Positions 14,801 to 62,825 of a DNA stretch of 64,000 nucleotides are shown in pieces. The DNA is from Candidatus Rokuibacteriota bacterium (GTDB taxonomy: Bacteria > Methylomirabilota > Methylomirabilia > Rokubacteriales > CSP1-6), in assembly GCA_003220265.1 (NCBI GenBank), contig QHRW01000115.1:1391-65390 (forward strand). Reading direction: 5' to 3'. Made by a program: the position numbers and the translations under genes. The notes beneath the pieces were generated by a model that saw nothing but the letters and a program-made list of their open reading frames with translations, did not search any database and was not told the DNA's origin. The number at the start of each line of letters is the position of its first letter. Position 1 is the stretch's first letter.

Positions 14801-16245
14801 GCCTCCGAGCGCACGACCTCGCGGAAGGTCTCGCGCGCCAGCGTGCGGTAGGGGAACGCGCTCACGAACCGCTCGTAGAGCGCATCCACGCCGATCGACT
14901 CGGCGGCCACGGCCGCGACGACCTGCTGGGCCAGCACGTCCAGCGGCGCCTCCGGCATCGCGATGCGATCGAGGCGATGCTCGCGGATCGTGCGCACGAC
15001 GGCCGCGGCCTCCAGCAGCTCCTCGCCTTTCGTGACGAGAATGCGCCCCTTCGAGGTGCGCGACAGCAGATGGCCGGCGCGCCCCACGCGCTGCAGCGCG
15101 GCCGCCACGTTGCGCGGCGACTGCACCTGGATCACGAGGTCGATCGCGCCCACGTCGATGCCGAGCTCGAGCGACGAGGTGGCGACGAGCGCCCGCAGCT
15201 CGCCCGCCTTGAGCCGGTTCTCGGCCTCCAGCCGCGCGCGCCGCGAGAGTGACCCATGATGGGCCGCCACTTTGTTGCCGAAGGGGGCTACGCCCCCCTC
15301 GCTCTCCCCTTTGTTGGCGAAGGGGGCTACGCCCCCCTCGCTCTCCCCCGGTCCATCGGGGATCCGATCGTTGAGGTCCCGCGCCAGCCGCTCGGCCGCC
15401 CGCCGGCTCTGCGCGAACACCAGCGTCGTGCGGTGGGCCAGCACCAGCTCGGCGATCTGCTGGAGCGCCGCGTCCCACACGGTGTCGCTGGTCGCCGTGA
15501 GGAAGTCGTCCACCGGCGAGACGACCTGCACGTCGAGGTCGCGCGAGAAGCCGGCGTCCACAACCAACGGTTCGCGCCCGGTGGCGCCCGTCAGAAAGGC
15601 CAGCGCATCCTCGATGGGGCTCACCGTCGCCGAGCAGCCGATGCGCTGCGGGCGCGCGCCCGGCTCACGCTCGGCCACCAGCGCCTGCAGCCGCTCCAGC
15701 GAGAGCGCGAGGTGAGAGCCGCGCTTGCTGCCCATGAGCGCGTGGACCTCGTCCACGATGACGAAGCGGGCCTGGGCCAGCGCCGGCCGGAAGCCCGCGC
15801 TCGTGAGCAGGATGTAGAGCGACTCGGGCGTGGTGATCAGCACGTGAGGCGGCCGTCGGGTCATCGCCTGGCGCGCGGCCGCCAGCGTGTCGCCGGTGCG
15901 GACGGCCACGCGGACCTCGGGGACGTCGAGGCCGTCGGCCTCGGCCGCGGCGCGGATGCCGGCCAGTGGCTCGCGCAGGTTCTTCTCGATGTCGTTGTTC
16001 AGCGCGCGCAGCGGCGAGACGTAGACCACGTAGACGCGGTCCTCGAGACGTCCCTCGAGCCCCAGCCGGTGCAGGTGGTCCAGCGCCCACAGAAACGACG
16101 CCAGCGTCTTGCCGGACCCCGTCGGCGCCACGATGAGCGTGTCGCGGCCGGAGGCGATCGCGTCCCAGCCCTCACGCTGCGGGCGGGTGGCCTCGGTGAA
16201 CGTCGCCTCGAACCAGCGACGGACGAAGGGGAGGAACTGCGGCAT
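11830..16245 (-). CDS. lhr: ATP-dependent helicase Lhr (large helicase-related, DEAD/DEAH superfamily 2)
   Basis: 1471 aa: APTGSGKT (Walker A), VIVDEVH, CSATV, HHGSLSRRAR, TSSLELGIDVG, QRVGRAGH, plus a long Lhr-type C-terminal domain. Confidence 0.9.
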   Translation of the reverse strand: MPQFLPFVRRWFEATFTEATRPQREGWDAIASGRDTLIVAPTGSGKTLASFLWALDHLHRLGLEGRLEDRVYVVYVSPLRALNNDIEKNLREPLAGIRAAAEADGLDVPEVRVAVRTGDTLAAARQAMTRRPPHVLITTPESLYILLTSAGFRPALAQARFVIVDEVHALMGSKRGSHLALSLERLQALVAEREPGARPQRIGCSATVSPIEDALAFLTGATGREPLVVDAGFSRDLDVQVVSPVDDFLTATSDTVWDAALQQIAELVLAHRTTLVFAQSRRAAERLARDLNDRIPDGPGESEGGVAPFANKGESEGGVAPFGNKVAAHHGSLSRRARLEAENRLKAGELRALVATSSLELGIDVGAIDLVIQVQSPRNVAAALQRVGRAGHLLSRTSKGRILVTKGEELLEAAAVVRTIREHRLDRIAMPEAPLDVLAQQVVAAVAAESIGVDALYERFVSAFPYRTLARETFREVVRSEAEPLPAEVKGVAPRILWDRVNDRLHARRGSRFLALTAGGTIPDAGLYDVYVAETDLKVGTLDEEFVTESLPGDVFLLGSHAWKIAKVRADRVLVEDAQGMSPTIPFWKGEHPSRSWDLGVAVGRLRRDAAERLDAPDFAAWAARECGLDARATAAMHAWLVKAGEVLQGVADDQGIVVESFSDEMGGRHAMIHSVFGMRINGAWGMALREQVRRRFGLQAEVSHVDDGILLSFAPGQVPPAPERLVTLVAPEELDNLLGEALIGSPLFGTRFRHAAVRALFIPRMTRGQRTPAYLQRLKADALLEAVKGQPDFPVVAETLRECFNDAYDVPRLKRVLERLHDGEMWTRHVDTPVPSPFVYPLLLAWDWAYLDTGHAEERRSDTVAMRKNWSVAPGPLRPEIIAAVEAELQRTTPERRARDANELAAILDDLGDLTRAEIGERVVSDADALIAALLAERRITLVEFGARHAWIPATDAPLYAGLATEAGLERIALRALRTRGPVTAQSLAERYGLTPDDIQPALERLVARGVVRRGDFMREELEGGSAPLKLERYLHIAVLDEIQRRQVHARRVPRPVATAEQFAAFLLRRHHLHPEHRLVGPPGVLAALELLQGEDFPVKVWEQDLLSARVEDYQREWLDRLGLAGEIVWTVFEPAAGRVGVALRDNVGWLRETGERPELDPKTKNVLLHLQLRGASFARDLARGAGLEPPQVEAALWDLFRAGLATPDTFSAIVAAAASPRGAETGSARRRRPRRGQARGLLAHLPPIGRWSALAEEERLSPEEREEARAQLLLARYAVVTRELARGDWATLRHTLLRMEYGGEVVRGYFVEGLSGEQYALEDSLTNLAASPRRAEPHVLVNLADPANLWGRAWPLSRRDGGRLGVARLPHAWLIVRAGRPVVVAENYGRELTPLAAFEPVDLPGTVRALQTLMERPLTLRPVRRLEIVGWDSRPIRETEAFAAFIEAGFSADGARLTWDGYPGPRLLR
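13151..13181. repeat. 31-nt palindrome (14-bp stem, 3-nt loop) embedded in frame in lhr
   Basis: AGCTTGAGGGGGGC-GCT-GCCCCCCTCAAGCT, paired by hand. On the gene strand it encodes ELEGGSAPLKL. Confidence 0.75.
15271..15348. repeat. 2 x 39-nt in-frame tandem duplication inside lhr, each copy carrying a GC hairpin
   Basis: 15271-15309 and 15310-15348 differ at 1 of 39 positions. The core is CGAAGGGGGC-TAC-GCCCCCCTCG. They encode GESEGGVAPFANK and GESEGGVAPFGNK. Confidence 0.85.
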
Positions 16246-28561: not shown

Positions 28562-28741
28562 GGCTGACTCCTTGCGGGCGTGTGGGTCGGGCGGCGAGTG
28601 ATCACCCTACAATCGGAATGCCATGGCTCCAAGGCGCGGCGAGGGCATGATCAGGCACTATGGGTGGGGCCCGCCCGCGGACCACGCAACGGGTTGTGAT
28701 GGGACTGTGAAACGCTCTTGCGCCGCTGCGAAGCAGCTGCG

Positions 28742-29494
28742 CTAGAGCGCGAGAAGCTCGTGCCGCAGCGCCTGGTCGTCGCGCAGGCGGGCGGCGGGGC
28801 CGCTGAAGCGAATCGAGCCCTTCTCCAGCACGTAGACGCGGTCGGCCAGGGCCAGCGAGAACTCGGTGTTCTGCTCGGCGAGCAGAATGGTCAGTCCCTC
28901 GTGCTTGAGCCGCGCGATCTGCTCGCGCAGGTGATCGACGACGAGCGGCGCCAGGCCTTCGGAGGGCTCGTCGAGGAGCAGCAGCTCGGGGTTGCCCATG
29001 AGCGTCCGCGCGATGGTCAGCATCTGCTGCTCGCCACCCGAGAGATAGCCGCCGTTGCGCCCGGTCAGCTCGCGCAGCTTGGGGAAGAGATCGAAGACTC
29101 GCTCCACGGTCCATTGGAGCGGGTGCCGGGAGTCCGGATCGCTCCGAGGGTGGCCTGGTCTAGATGCGGCGTGGCTCCGTTTACTGGCGACGTCCAGGTT
29201 CTCCCAGACCGTGAGGTCGGCGAAGATGCGCCGGTCTTCGGGGACGAAGCCGATGCCGGCCTGGGCGACTCGGTACGGCGGCCAGCCGGTGATGTCGACG
29301 GACTTCCACGTGATGCGGCCCGCCTGCGGCGGCGTGAGGCCCATGATCGAGCGCATCGTCGTCGACTTGCCCACACCGTTGCGGCCGAGCAGGCACACGC
29401 ACTCGCCGGCCGCCACCTCCAGCGACACGCCGAACAGCACGCGTGAGAGCCCGTAGGCCGTGTGCACGTCGTGCGCCTCCAGGACGACACTCAT
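28742..29494 (-). CDS. livF: Branched-chain amino acid ABC transporter ATP-binding protein LivF
   Basis: MSVVLEAHDVHTAYG...GRNGVGKSTT (Walker A), LSGGEQQML, LLLLDEPSEGL. The real start is ATG 29494; the 373-aa ORF extension reads through the repeats. Confidence 0.9.
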   Translation of the reverse strand: MSVVLEAHDVHTAYGLSRVLFGVSLEVAAGECVCLLGRNGVGKSTTMRSIMGLTPPQAGRITWKSVDITGWPPYRVAQAGIGFVPEDRRIFADLTVWENLDVASKRSHAASRPGHPRSDPDSRHPLQWTVERVFDLFPKLRELTGRNGGYLSGGEQQMLTIARTLMGNPELLLLDEPSEGLAPLVVDHLREQIARLKHEGLTILLAEQNTEFSLALADRVYVLEKGSIRFSGPAARLRDDQALRHELLAL

Positions 29495-29948
29495 CTCTCG
29501 ACGTGGGGGGCCCCGACATGGCCCCCCACACCCCCCAACGCTCGGAGTGCCCCGGGGAACCCGTGGCACTCCTCGATTTCCCGCGTGCTCATCTCTCGAC
29601 GTGGGGGGGCCCCGACATGGCCCCCCACACCCCCCAACGCTCGGAGTGCCCCGGGGAGCCCGTGGCACTCCTCGAGTTCCCGCGTGCTCATCCTCTCGAC
29701 GTGGGGGGCCCCGACATGGCCCCCCACACCCCCCAACGCTCGGAGTGCCCCGGGGAACCCGTCGCACTCCTCGAGTTCCCGCGTGCTCATCTCTCGACGG
29801 GGGGCCCCGACATGGCCCCCCACCCCCGCCAACGCTCGGAGTGCCCCGGGGAACCCGTGGCACTCCTCAAGTTCCCGCGTGCTCATCTCTCGACGGGGGG
29901 CCCCGACATGGCCCAACCCGTCGTACTCCTCGATTCCCCGCGTGCTCA
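29491..29948. repeat. Tandem array 1 of the two-hairpin GC-rich repeat family (5 units: 98, 99, 99, 96, 63 nt)
   Basis: On the plus strand, units start at 29491, 29589, 29688, 29787 and 29883, each beginning TCATC(C)TCTCGACG. Hairpin 1 is at 29503-29529 and hairpin 2 at 29544-29572. Confidence 0.9.
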
Positions 29949-30683
29949 TCGGCGCTCGCCCAGGTAGACGCGGCGGACCTCGGCGTCGGCGCGGACGTCG
30001 GCGGGCGCGCCCTCGGCGATCACGCGGCCCTGGTGGAGCACGGTGATCTTCTGCGCGATCGAGAAGACGACCTCCATGTCGTGCTCGGTGAACAGGAGCG
30101 TGAGGCCCCGCTCGCGCGCGATGCGCTCGACGAGACGGATCGTCTCGCGCGTCTCGGAGACGGACATGCCCGCCGTCGGCTCGTCGAGCAGGAGCAGCGA
30201 CGGCTCGCTGGCCAGCGCGATGCCGAGCTCGAGCTGCTTCTGGGCGCCGTGGGAGAGGAAGCCGCTCACCTCGCCGGCGCGCTCGCGCAGGCCCAGCGAC
30301 GCCAGCAGCGCCTCGGTCTCGCCCCGGTAGAGCTCGTCCACGCGGCTCCAGAGATCGAGCCCGCGCCCCCGGTGCGACAGGAACGCGGCCTGCACGTTCT
30401 GGTAGACCGTCAGCCGGGGAAAGATGTTCGTGCGCTGGAAGGAGCGCCCCATGCCGAGGCGGCAGACGTCGTGCGGGGGCAGCCCGGTGATGTCGCGGCC
30501 CTCGAGCACGACGGCGCCCGCCTCCGGCCGGAGGTGGCCGGTGATCAGGTTGAACAGCGTCGTCTTGCCGGCGCCGTTCGGGCCGATGATCGCCGCGATC
30601 TGCCCGCGGGCCACGCTGACGCTGGCGTCGTTGACGGCCACGAAGCCGTCGAACGACTTGCGCACGCCACGCACCTCGAGCAT
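29946..30683 (-). CDS. livG: Branched-chain amino acid ABC transporter ATP-binding protein LivG
   Basis: MLEVRGVRKSFDGFVAVNDASV...GPNGAGKTTLFN, LSHGAQKQLE, LLLLDEPTAGM. Internal start of ORF 29946..31283. Confidence 0.9.
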   Translation of the reverse strand: MLEVRGVRKSFDGFVAVNDASVSVARGQIAAIIGPNGAGKTTLFNLITGHLRPEAGAVVLEGRDITGLPPHDVCRLGMGRSFQRTNIFPRLTVYQNVQAAFLSHRGRGLDLWSRVDELYRGETEALLASLGLRERAGEVSGFLSHGAQKQLELGIALASEPSLLLLDEPTAGMSVSETRETIRLVERIARERGLTLLFTEHDMEVVFSIAQKITVLHQGRVIAEGAPADVRADAEVRRVYLGERR

Positions 30684-31636
30684 CAGGCGGGCCGCCGCAG
30701 CCAGCGCAGCGCGGTGCCGGCGGCGCCGGCGAGACCGCCGGGGAAGACGAACAGCAGCACGATCAAAATGGTGCCGAGCACGAACGGCCAGTACTCCGTG
30801 TACGAGACGATCTGCTGGTTGAGCAGGATCAGCGCGAGGGCGCCCAGCGCGGGGCCGTAGAACGTCCCCATGCCGCCCAGCAGCGTCATGATGAGCACCT
30901 CGGACGACTTCGTCCAGTAGGCGAAATCGGGAAAGACGCCGCGGTTGAAGATGCCGAAGAGACCGCCGGCGAGCCCCGCGAAGGCGCCGGCCAGCACGAA
31001 GGCGGCCAGCTCGTAGCGCCGCACGTTGACGCCGATGAACTCTGCGCGCTCGGCGTTCTCGCGGATCGTGGTCAGCATCCGCCCGAACGGCGAGCCGACC
31101 ACGCGCCGCAGCACCCACAGGCAGAGCGCCACCAGCACGACGGTGACCAGGTAGAAGTGGTCGCTCGTCCGGAGCCCACCCACCAGCGGCAGCCGGCCCA
31201 TCCAGTCCAGGCTCGGATAGGGGATCTCCGGCATGCCCTGCTCGCCGCCGGTCACCTCGTTCCACTTGAAGCAGATGGCCCACACGATCTGCGCGAAGGC
31301 CAGCGTGAGCATGGCGAAGTAGATGCGCGTGAGGCGCACGCAGAAGAAGCCGAAGAGCAGCGCGAACCCGCCGGCCAGCACGCCGGCGGCGGGGAAGGCG
31401 ATCAGGAACGGCAGCGAGAGCTTCTTCATGAGCAGGCCGGTCGTGTAGGCCCCGATGCCGAAGTAGGCGGCGTGGCCGAACGAGACGAGCCCGGTGTAGC
31501 CGACGAGCAGGTTGAGGCTGGTGGCGAAGAGCGCCCAGATCAGCACGTCGTTGGCCAGGAACGTGTAGAAGCGCGAGCCCAGCGCCGGCACCAGCAGCGC
31601 CGCCGCCAGCAGCGCGAGCTCCCAGGGCGCGCGCAT
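30683..31636 (-). CDS. livM: Branched-chain amino acid ABC transporter permease LivM
   Basis: MRAPWELALLAAALLVPAL...LLVGYTGLVSFGHAAYFGIGAY. Internal start of ORF 30683..32356. Confidence 0.85.
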   Translation of the reverse strand: MRAPWELALLAAALLVPALGSRFYTFLANDVLIWALFATSLNLLVGYTGLVSFGHAAYFGIGAYTTGLLMKKLSLPFLIAFPAAGVLAGGFALLFGFFCVRLTRIYFAMLTLAFAQIVWAICFKWNEVTGGEQGMPEIPYPSLDWMGRLPLVGGLRTSDHFYLVTVVLVALCLWVLRRVVGSPFGRMLTTIRENAERAEFIGVNVRRYELAAFVLAGAFAGLAGGLFGIFNRGVFPDFAYWTKSSEVLIMTLLGGMGTFYGPALGALALILLNQQIVSYTEYWPFVLGTILIVLLFVFPGGLAGAAGTALRWLRRPA

Positions 31637-38327: not shown

Positions 38328-39815
<1,488 letters not shown>

Positions 39816-39830
<15 letters not shown>

Positions 39831-40110
39831 CGCGCCGCTGATCGCGGAGCGCCACGGCCTGGCCGGGGCGCTCCGAGCGCGGGGGGGCGTGGGGGGCCAT
39901 TTCGGGGCCCCCCACGACGGGCGGTGAAGCGGGTCATCGCGCCGGTGATCGCGGAGCCCCCCGGCGTGGCCGGGGCGCTCCGAGCGCCGGGGGGCATGGG
40001 GGCCATTTCGGGGCCCCCCACGACGGGCGGTGAAGCGGGTCATCGCGCCGGTGATCGAGGAGCGCCGCGGCTTGGCCGGGGCGCTCCGAGGGCCGGGGGG
40101 GCGTGGGCAT
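39816..40110. repeat. Tandem array 2 of the two-hairpin repeat family (107 + 106 nt units plus one 5'-truncated unit), in opposite orientation to arrays 1 and 3
   Basis: On the plus strand, units start with GGTGAAGCGG(C/G)TCATCGCGCC at 39816, 39923 and 40029. Hairpin 2 is at 39846-39874. Hairpin 1 is GTGGGGGGCC-ATTTCGG-GGCCCCCCAC. Confidence 0.9.
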
Positions 40111-62492: not shown

Positions 62493-62825
62493 TCATGGGG
62501 GCCACGAAATGGCCCCCAAACCCCCCGACGTTCGAAGCGCCCCGGCGGAGCCGTGGCGCTTCTCTGGAATGGTCCAGCGTCATGGGGGCCTCGACATGGC
62601 GCCCCCAAACCCCCCGACGTTCGAAGCGCCCCGGCGGAGCCGTGGCGCTTCTCTGGAATGGTCAGCGTCATGGGGGCCTCGACATGGCGCCCCCAAACCC
62701 CCCGACGTTCGAAGCGCCCCGGCGGAGCCGTGGCGCTTCTCTGGAATGGTCAGCGTCATGGGGGCCCCGAGATGGCCGCCAAGCCCCCACACGTTCGTCG
62801 CGCCCCGGCGCTTCTCTGGAAGCTG
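62493..62825. repeat. Tandem array 3 of the two-hairpin repeat family (87, 88, 88 nt plus one degenerate unit)
   Basis: Units start with TCATGGGGGCC at 62493, 62580, 62668 and 62756. Hairpin 2 of unit 1 is at 62534-62562. The last unit has lost the hairpin-2 loop. Confidence 0.9.

Follow-up and report, generated by a model that had tools for sequence, protein, structure and literature searches.

At the junction between livG and livF, two genes for ATP-binding cassette (ABC) ATPases in a 64,000-nt stretch of the genome of a Candidatus Rokuibacteriota bacterium (GenBank assembly GCA_003220265.1, contig QHRW01000115.1, positions 1,391 to 65,390; hereafter the window), lies a variable-number tandem array of a Rokubacteria-specific mobile repeat of about 100 nt with two hairpins. 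We propose, with a probability of roughly 0.6, that the array acts as a translational bridge resembling that described for mycobacterial interspersed repetitive units (MIRUs), so that ribosomes would use it as a path from livG to livF. The comparative support for such an open path is strong, and is drawn from ancestral gene overlaps at this junction in sister species, from five intact alleles of the array and from a census of other repeat copies measured against phase-shifted controls. In these sequences the conserved feature is an unbroken chain of stop/start overlaps, not one open reading frame (ORF) or indels in threes.

The operon has the order livK-H-M-G-F, and the array sits between the co-directional livG and livF in the same orientation. 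Because the upstream ATPase carries a branched-chain-amino-acid C-terminal domain, the pair is identified as livG and livF. The sequence-only reading of this DNA had described a 152-amino-acid (aa) ORF at 29491-29949 that overlaps both genes by ATGA, and all of its coordinates hold. The features of the junction are as follows.

29946..30683, minus strand: livG, ABC ATPase of 245 aa, Pfam ABC_tran and BCA_ABC_TP_C
28742..29494, minus strand: livF, ABC ATPase of 250 aa, Pfam ABC_tran, N-terminus aligning with orthologues
29491..29949, minus strand: bridge ORF of 152 aa (from the ORF list and its translation), sharing ATGA with livG and with livF
29887..29949, minus strand: unit 1, 63 nt, truncated and without hairpin 1 (the allele on contig L137 has a full 96-nt unit)
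29791..29886, minus strand: unit 2, 96 nt, with a 2-nt AC deletion relative to the 98-nt form and a CTT variant that gives a TGA in the livF frame
29692..29790, minus strand: unit 3, 99 nt, the 98-nt form plus one terminal G
29593..29691, minus strand: unit 4, 99 nt, the 98-nt form plus one C in a C-run
29495..29592, minus strand: unit 5, 98 nt (2 modulo 3), bringing the next TGA into frame
29490..29494, minus strand: ATGAG at the livF start, with a second copy at 29945-29949; putative 5-nt target-site duplication
29544..29572, minus strand: hairpin 1 of the last unit, GGAGTGCC...GGCACTCC, from the predicted fold; its stem pairs covary among genome copies
29503..29529, minus strand: hairpin 2 of the last unit, GTGGGGGGCC ATGTCGG GGCCCCCCAC, ending 8 nt upstream of the livF ATG

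The livG gene starts at the ATG of a TGATG overlap with livM and stops at TGA 29948-29946; L137 also has a 245-aa livG gene call. The ATG of the bridge ORF (29949-29947) shares TG with this stop, and its own TGA (29493-29491) shares TG with the livF ATG (29494-29492). Its product begins with MSTRGIEEYDGLGHVGAPRRE, continues with four units of 32-33 aa and ends in HVER*; one of the peptides predicted from the array is ELEECHGFPGALR, and the hairpin tails read ACGTCGAGAG. Splitting the array at ATGAGCACGCGG, with which each unit starts, reproduced the reported spacing of 63, 96, 99 and 99 nt followed by a final, phase-shifting unit; since that last unit is 98 nt long, the terminal TGA overlaps the livF ATG. 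Tandem Repeats Finder describes the array as 4.4 copies of a 99-nt unit with 95% identity. Elsewhere in the operon, as the sequence-only reading had also said, the liv genes meet in 1-nt overlaps (TAGTG, TGATG) and, once, across a 5-nt gap.

Stop codons are scarce on the gene strand of the array: one frame contains five TGAs, all from internal ATGA words, the livF frame a single TGA due to the C-to-T variant in unit 2, and the frame of the bridge ORF its terminal TGA only. With stops so few and so placed, the openness of the array is set almost entirely by unit length modulo 3, and the earlier caution that frames may be open merely through GC richness was right. GC contents at the three codon positions of the bridge ORF (GC1/GC2/GC3) are 0.78/0.57/0.80, the most coding-like pattern of the three frames. 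A Pfam search of this ORF returned no family at the cut-off, a sub-threshold NB-ARC match being taken as noise, and an exact look-up of the 152-aa protein found no other record. No usable Shine-Dalgarno sequence precedes livF; what lies just upstream is a GC hairpin of 13 bp that ends 8 nt from the start codon. No promoter-like or terminator-like site (the latter a GC hairpin plus T-run) was found in or around the array when 28600-30800 was scanned, which is consistent with co-transcription of the two genes and is no proof of it.

Alleles of the array were collected by a metagenome scan with the 5' end of livF and by exact look-up of the 250-aa LivF. An identical LivF occurs on six other contigs, four of which, from different samples, carry the array. 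The source soils include those sampled for Ga0066710, Ga0066698, ERZ28573530 and ERZ28573615. From livG to livF, the unit lengths in nt are:

This window (host genome G000): 63-96-99-99-98; one ORF of 152 aa
L137 (= L013): 96-96-99-99-98; one ORF of 163 aa
L138: 98-99-98; an internal ATGA links two ORFs (33 and 66 codons)
L136: five or more 99-nt units before a final 98-nt one; the contig begins inside the array, and the ORF has 198 codons or more
L140: 98-98; contig begins inside the array

Among contigs with an identical LivF, copy number is 3, about 4.6, 5 and at least 6 units. All five alleles nevertheless place the last stop 1 nt beyond the A of the livF ATG, and the chain of stop/start overlaps is unbroken from the first visible unit to livF in all five; it can be traced from the livG stop in three, namely this window and two contigs that reach livG. 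The 20 units represent 12 distinct sequences, and none of the 20 has a length of 1 modulo 3, the only class that takes ribosomes past an ATGA without an in-frame methionine or a stop/restart. Units of 0 modulo 3 fuse into one ORF, units of 2 modulo 3 add an ATGA hand-over, and the chain survives both. Relative to the 98-nt form, the length changes are a G gained at the end, a C or G gained beside the loop, the loss of AC and a further loss of 33 nt. These amount to 4-5 separate indels and, taken as 4-5 independent events, give p ~0.02-0.06, which is suggestive alone. Amino-acid differences from unit to unit are mostly non-synonymous.

The array is present in four independent metagenome assemblies, three of which share unit variants, including 1-nt indels, with G000; single-base insertions common to independent assemblies are no sequencing error. 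L136 had been a candidate empty site and was rejected, its apparent upstream gene being the array ORF. The expectation that indels at livG-livF junctions would all be multiples of 3 was not borne out: lengths are 0 or 2 modulo 3, and the in-frame TGA of L138 is an ATGA restart. The idea that the bridge restores coupling stands in part, in that sister overlaps, the five alleles and the census point to an open path from livG to livF, but a single spanning ORF is not conserved.

Sister genomes from this genus and family lack the array, and their livG and livF matches adjoin. Aligned empty junctions from six sister-genus genomes read ATGA (G004), GTGA (G002, G006, G010 and G012) or TGATG (G016); G007, G003 and G014 were judged by BLAST coordinates. 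Outside the six aligned genomes, the livG and livF flank matches lie only 15-33 nt apart. Removing the array in silico leaves ...GAGCGCCGATGAGTGTCG..., an ATGA overlap, and the ATGAG at both array ends suggests a 5-nt target duplication. Direct overlaps in sister species indicate that coupling is the ancestral state. By these comparisons the repeat entered the livG/livF ATGA overlap, duplicated ATGAG and later grew by tandem duplication, and the insertion is lineage-specific and recent.

To place the array among other copies of the repeat, a census was taken of all copies between two co-directional genes, the genes being called from the GC3/GC1/GC2 pattern (4543 ORFs, 88% of the genome). A copy was scored as a bridge when an ORF starts a few nt from the upstream stop, crosses the repeat and ends a few nt from the downstream start, and as a strict bridge when both ends are ATGA, GTGA or TGATG overlaps. 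As control, 1 or 2 nt were deleted in the core. The counts of bridges, with strict bridges in brackets, are:

G000, 21 same-orientation loci: real sequence 12 (9); 1 nt deleted 6 (2); 2 nt deleted 1 (0)
Other Rokubacteria metagenome-assembled genomes (MAGs), 21 loci among 143 (L020-L135): real sequence 8 (5); 1 nt deleted 3 (1); 2 nt deleted 2 (1)

Pooled strict bridges, all at loci other than livG/livF, are therefore 14:3:1 for real, 1-nt-deleted and 2-nt-deleted sequences (chi-square p = 0.0003). Reverse-oriented copies, which served as a negative control, showed no phase preference toward the downstream gene under the identical analysis. Bridges in G000 span 86, 89, 95, 98 or 101 nt, those in other MAGs form ORFs of 34, 36 or 69 codons, and at least 7 different bridge lengths are found, all in phase. 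Two sub-families use different core frames (...IEERHGFPGALRA.GGVGGH.GAPH... versus ...IPRRATA.PGRVRA.GVWGPCRGPQ...), and with two core frames in use the peptide is not the conserved thing. Bridged genes begin directly after hairpin 2, without an AGGAGG-type site, whereas some non-bridged copies precede a canonical ribosome-binding site of that type; non-bridged copies sit behind TAA, TAG or TGA stops, several of them distant. Four of the bridged G000 junctions have counterparts in relatives that align throughout and lack the repeat; the three of these empty sites that were read are TGATG, GTGA and TGATG overlaps. Comparison of filled with empty sites elsewhere gives duplications of TGATG, ATGA or TGA.

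A two-unit array comes from another species, G008, at the junction orthologous to C162:81912 (L015, C2:75270-75570, minus strand). Its units measure 100 and 92 nt; neither length is divisible by 3, and they are in phase only as a sum. The array contains one 63-codon ORF that runs from an ATGA overlap to a TAG directly before the downstream ATG. The first 13 nt of the downstream gene (ATGAGACTCCTGC) are repeated at the head of its second unit, showing that tandem growth copies the start of the gene along with the repeat.

Individual copies, all of them outside the window, illustrate the range of contexts. In G000, a second livG/livF-like ABC ATPase pair is split by a single repeat copy (C179:18751-18819), and the 34-aa ORF there overlaps both genes, with ATGA at its start and ATGGTGA at its end. 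On the minus strand of C44 (29825-30034), an ATGA overlap with the upstream gene marks the start of a 70-aa ORF whose N-terminus (MKRRRLLRRLALAVLLCGAAP...) resembles that of a signal peptide or lipoprotein; a repeat copy supplies the final ~25 residues and the stop codon of this ORF. The repeat core also lies within a gene: at C162:82228-82298 it forms, in frame and without a stop, codons 76-99 (VIEDRDGSAGAVPRVWGSGGHVGAPS) of a 245-aa His_Phos_1 gene (C162:81999-82736), whose Pfam match ends where the repeat starts and which is itself preceded by a bridging copy (C162:81912-81988). A degenerate copy in the long-read MAG G012 (L014, C4:240380-240580) occupies the junction orthologous to C162:709-798; it was set aside as unreliable for frame analysis, the flanking gene itself carrying homopolymer frameshifts.

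The host genome G000 is a short-read MAG of 6.0 Mb (70.6% GC, 200 contigs, 92% complete). With one array unit as BLAST query it yields 190 matches at 159 loci, and hairpin 2 has 167 matches, for about 140-160 repeat loci overall. The majority form no bridge and occupy ordinary spacers or positions behind stop codons. The common core of ~70-75 nt within the ~100-nt unit consists of two hairpins, with consensus GGAGyGCC...GGCrCTCC and TGGGGGGCC-ATnTCGG-GGCCCCCCA, preceded by a partly conserved 5' leader and trailed by an AT-richer tail. Pairing in hairpin 1 is kept by compensatory changes among 164 distinct copies, as at one stem position that is GC in 54 of them, AU in 54 and CG in 29. The predicted folding energy is -61.7 kcal/mol for one unit with the livF start and -282.7 kcal/mol for the whole array (z = -3.9 relative to shuffles).

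About 20 of the repeat loci in the genome hold tandem arrays, whose periods differ from locus to locus. Two more arrays of the family lie in the window, at 39809-40107 and 62493-62810; their periods of 106 and 88 nt are not multiples of 3, and the census found neither of them between co-directional called genes. Repeats in reverse orientation start with ATGGGGGCCCCGA..., read as M-G-A-P-x-W-P-P, and several such copies open ORFs near upstream stops. At C86:5490-5650 (G000, outside the window), a single copy lies between two ~35-nt stretches of the same gene 3' end (GACGGCTTCGTGAAGCTGGTGCTGGAGAGCGTG), a flanking duplication much longer than the 4-5 nt seen at operon junctions. In an exact-pattern scan of species-representative genomes, the hairpin occurred in many Candidatus Rokubacteria/Methylomirabilota MAGs and almost nowhere else. 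An Rfam search gave no family at the gathering score, an archaeal snoRNA match (24 bits against a gathering score of 60) being attributed to chance, and none of the papers covered by the literature searches describes a Rokubacteria repeat family. The window also holds a 39-nt tandem duplication unrelated to the repeat (15270-15348; 2.0 copies, 97% identical; CTTTGTTGCCGAAGGGGGCTACGCCCCCCTCGCTCTCCC).

The proposed bridge would work as follows. The first of the duplicated ATGA words ends livG and offers a start codon in the former sequence context of livF, and ribosomes finishing livG would re-initiate on the repeat ORF by termination-reinitiation. They would then translate through the array, melting its hairpins, until the last ATGA ends the repeat frame on the livF start codon, where they would re-initiate again. 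The insertion would thereby be nearly neutral for LivF synthesis and the bridge peptide itself would have no function. The frame might be kept by host selection, or because successful element lineages are so built. A further, more tentative suggestion, which we regard as possible but would not favour, is that the repeat is a selfish element adapted to stop/start overlaps: it would target TGA/ATGA and carry a hairpin-tolerant frame of 2 modulo 3, such that each insertion or duplication rebuilds coupling, an independent invention of the MIRU strategy.

Several observations weigh against translation across the array. The GC3 of the bridge ORF, 0.80, compares with a genome mean of 0.90, and the preponderance of non-synonymous differences between units, although expected under the bridge model, is no positive coding signal. 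Under a broader definition of compatibility (0 or 2 modulo 3, or later compensation), the array phase is only weakly improbable (p ~0.02-0.06), and short-read assembly of 99-nt tandem repeats may misjudge copy number. Eight of the 14 strict bridges are 101 nt long and reflect shared master copies, so that their lengths are not independent; counting distinct length classes only, 7 of 11 are in phase (p = 0.04). All six frames of the core are open in about 75-83% of copies, so commonly that openness alone is uninformative, and it was rejected as evidence. If TGA duplication is combined with a master length of 2 modulo 3, bridges would be made without selection. The shared length, the open frames and the TGA-containing duplications that flank filled sites would all suit the main rival reading, an untranslated by-product, in which a selfish element targets TGA/ATGA, its length is 2 modulo 3 by chance, the open frame is due to GC richness and shared descent, and LivF comes from independent initiation or is produced in smaller amounts; a recent array, absent from sister species, would also have left little time for selection. 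We consider this rather unlikely, since at least 7 different bridge lengths are in phase with two core frames in use, the 4-5 separate array indels all avoid 1 modulo 3, the 100 + 92 array of G008 is in phase only as a sum, and reverse-oriented copies of the same lengths give no signal. Independent initiation would, in addition, have to occur at a livF start that lacks a Shine-Dalgarno sequence and directly follows the GC hairpin.

The covariation of hairpin 1, the stability of the predicted array fold and the many copies that are not bridges would agree with a role at the RNA or DNA level, like that of REP/BIME elements, under which the array would stabilise mRNA, serve as a processing site or roadblock, or bind a protein, thereby tuning the livG:livF ratio, and the ORF would be a secondary feature. 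Such a role seems improbable, as it leaves the phase statistics at operon junctions unexplained, the array has no terminator-like T-run and belongs to no Rfam family, the same operon lacks it in all sister species, and the covariation may reflect needs of mobilisation and not a host function. Still less credible is a functional repeat protein or peptide as the product of the ORF. Its length (152 to at least 198 aa) and its coding-like GC pattern could be read in this way, but it has no Pfam family and its exact protein no second record, strains with identical LivF have anywhere between 3 and at least 6 copies, one allele splits into two ORFs, unit differences are mostly non-synonymous, other copies use a different frame and sister species lack the ORF. 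Finally, collapsed or expanded repeats together with homopolymer errors might mimic the phase pattern; the MAG was assembled from short reads into 200 contigs, two allelic contigs begin inside the array and the long-read relative G012 has homopolymer frameshifts at another locus. An artefact of this kind is nonetheless highly implausible, because the same unit variants, including the +G and +C insertions, recur in independent assemblies from different samples.

The closest parallel to the proposed bridge is found in MIRUs, described in PMC3184786 as units of 40-100 bp, with tens of dispersed copies in operon intergenic regions and tetranucleotide direct repeats at filled sites, that serve as variable-number tandem repeat (VNTR) markers. 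MIRU ORFs overlap the start and stop of flanking genes (-4 spacing), which has been read as preserving translational coupling (Supply et al., 1997, as reported in PMC3184786 and PMC12548453). Both families have GC-rich internal inverted repeats, are dispersed, form tandem arrays with strain-variable copy number, lie between operon genes with short direct repeats evident from filled versus empty sites, and carry ORFs that overlap their neighbours. They differ in host (Rokubacteria/Methylomirabilota versus Mycobacterium), and their likeness is one of described features; the Rokubacteria repeat, moreover, has more loci, mostly outside operon junctions, a defined two-hairpin architecture with covariation, and some copies inside genes. 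We therefore file the array as an analogue of MIRUs that would work alike, and not as a member of the mycobacterial family.

Rickettsia palindromic elements (RPEs), palindromic repeats of ~100 nt, are tolerated in translated sequence with the frame kept, according to PMC3184786, which cites Ogata et al., 2000. The copy inside the His_Phos_1 gene, and not the livG/livF array itself, resembles them, whereas RPEs are known for intragenic insertions and not for stop/start bridges or tandem arrays in operons. In leader-ORF termination-reinitiation, as in coupling by upstream ORFs and in synthetic cassettes, a short or non-functional ORF ends on the target start codon, so that ribosomes unfold the structure in their way and start again with no need of a Shine-Dalgarno sequence (PMC12548453, PMC6728339). 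The delivering ORF would differ here in coming from a mobile repeat and in having 33 to ~200 codons. Repetitive extragenic palindromic (REP) sequences of proteobacteria, with the related BIME and REPIN forms, are ~35 nt long, owe their mobility to RAYT (Y1) transposases and do not serve as coupled ORFs. They share with the Rokubacteria repeat the form of GC-rich hairpins that are frequent just after stops, sometimes clustered and found inside operons. A search for Y1/RAYT transposases (PF01797) gave no match in the 92%-complete genome, where control genomes did match; Y1/RAYT was accordingly rejected as the mobiliser, and by the transposase test the repeat is not a REP/RAYT system.

Translational coupling via ATGA or TGATG overlaps is very common. 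To our knowledge, tolerance of operons to insertions at such stop/start overlaps is represented by essentially one case, the mycobacterial MIRUs. The livG/livF array would be a second case, unrelated to the first and from an uncultured phylum of soil bacteria, with a natural allelic series and empty sites that make the bridge-ORF idea testable both statistically and by reporters. In practical terms, gene prediction programs will list false proteins of 150-200 aa where such arrays occur, the livF-type starts that follow are prone to mis-annotation, and array loci could be used as VNTR markers for Rokubacteria strains in metagenomes. On the tentative reading of the repeat as a selfish element that rebuilds coupling, array length, from 3 to at least 6 units that are either fused or chained, could be a fast-evolving dial of the LivG:LivF ratio in natural populations.

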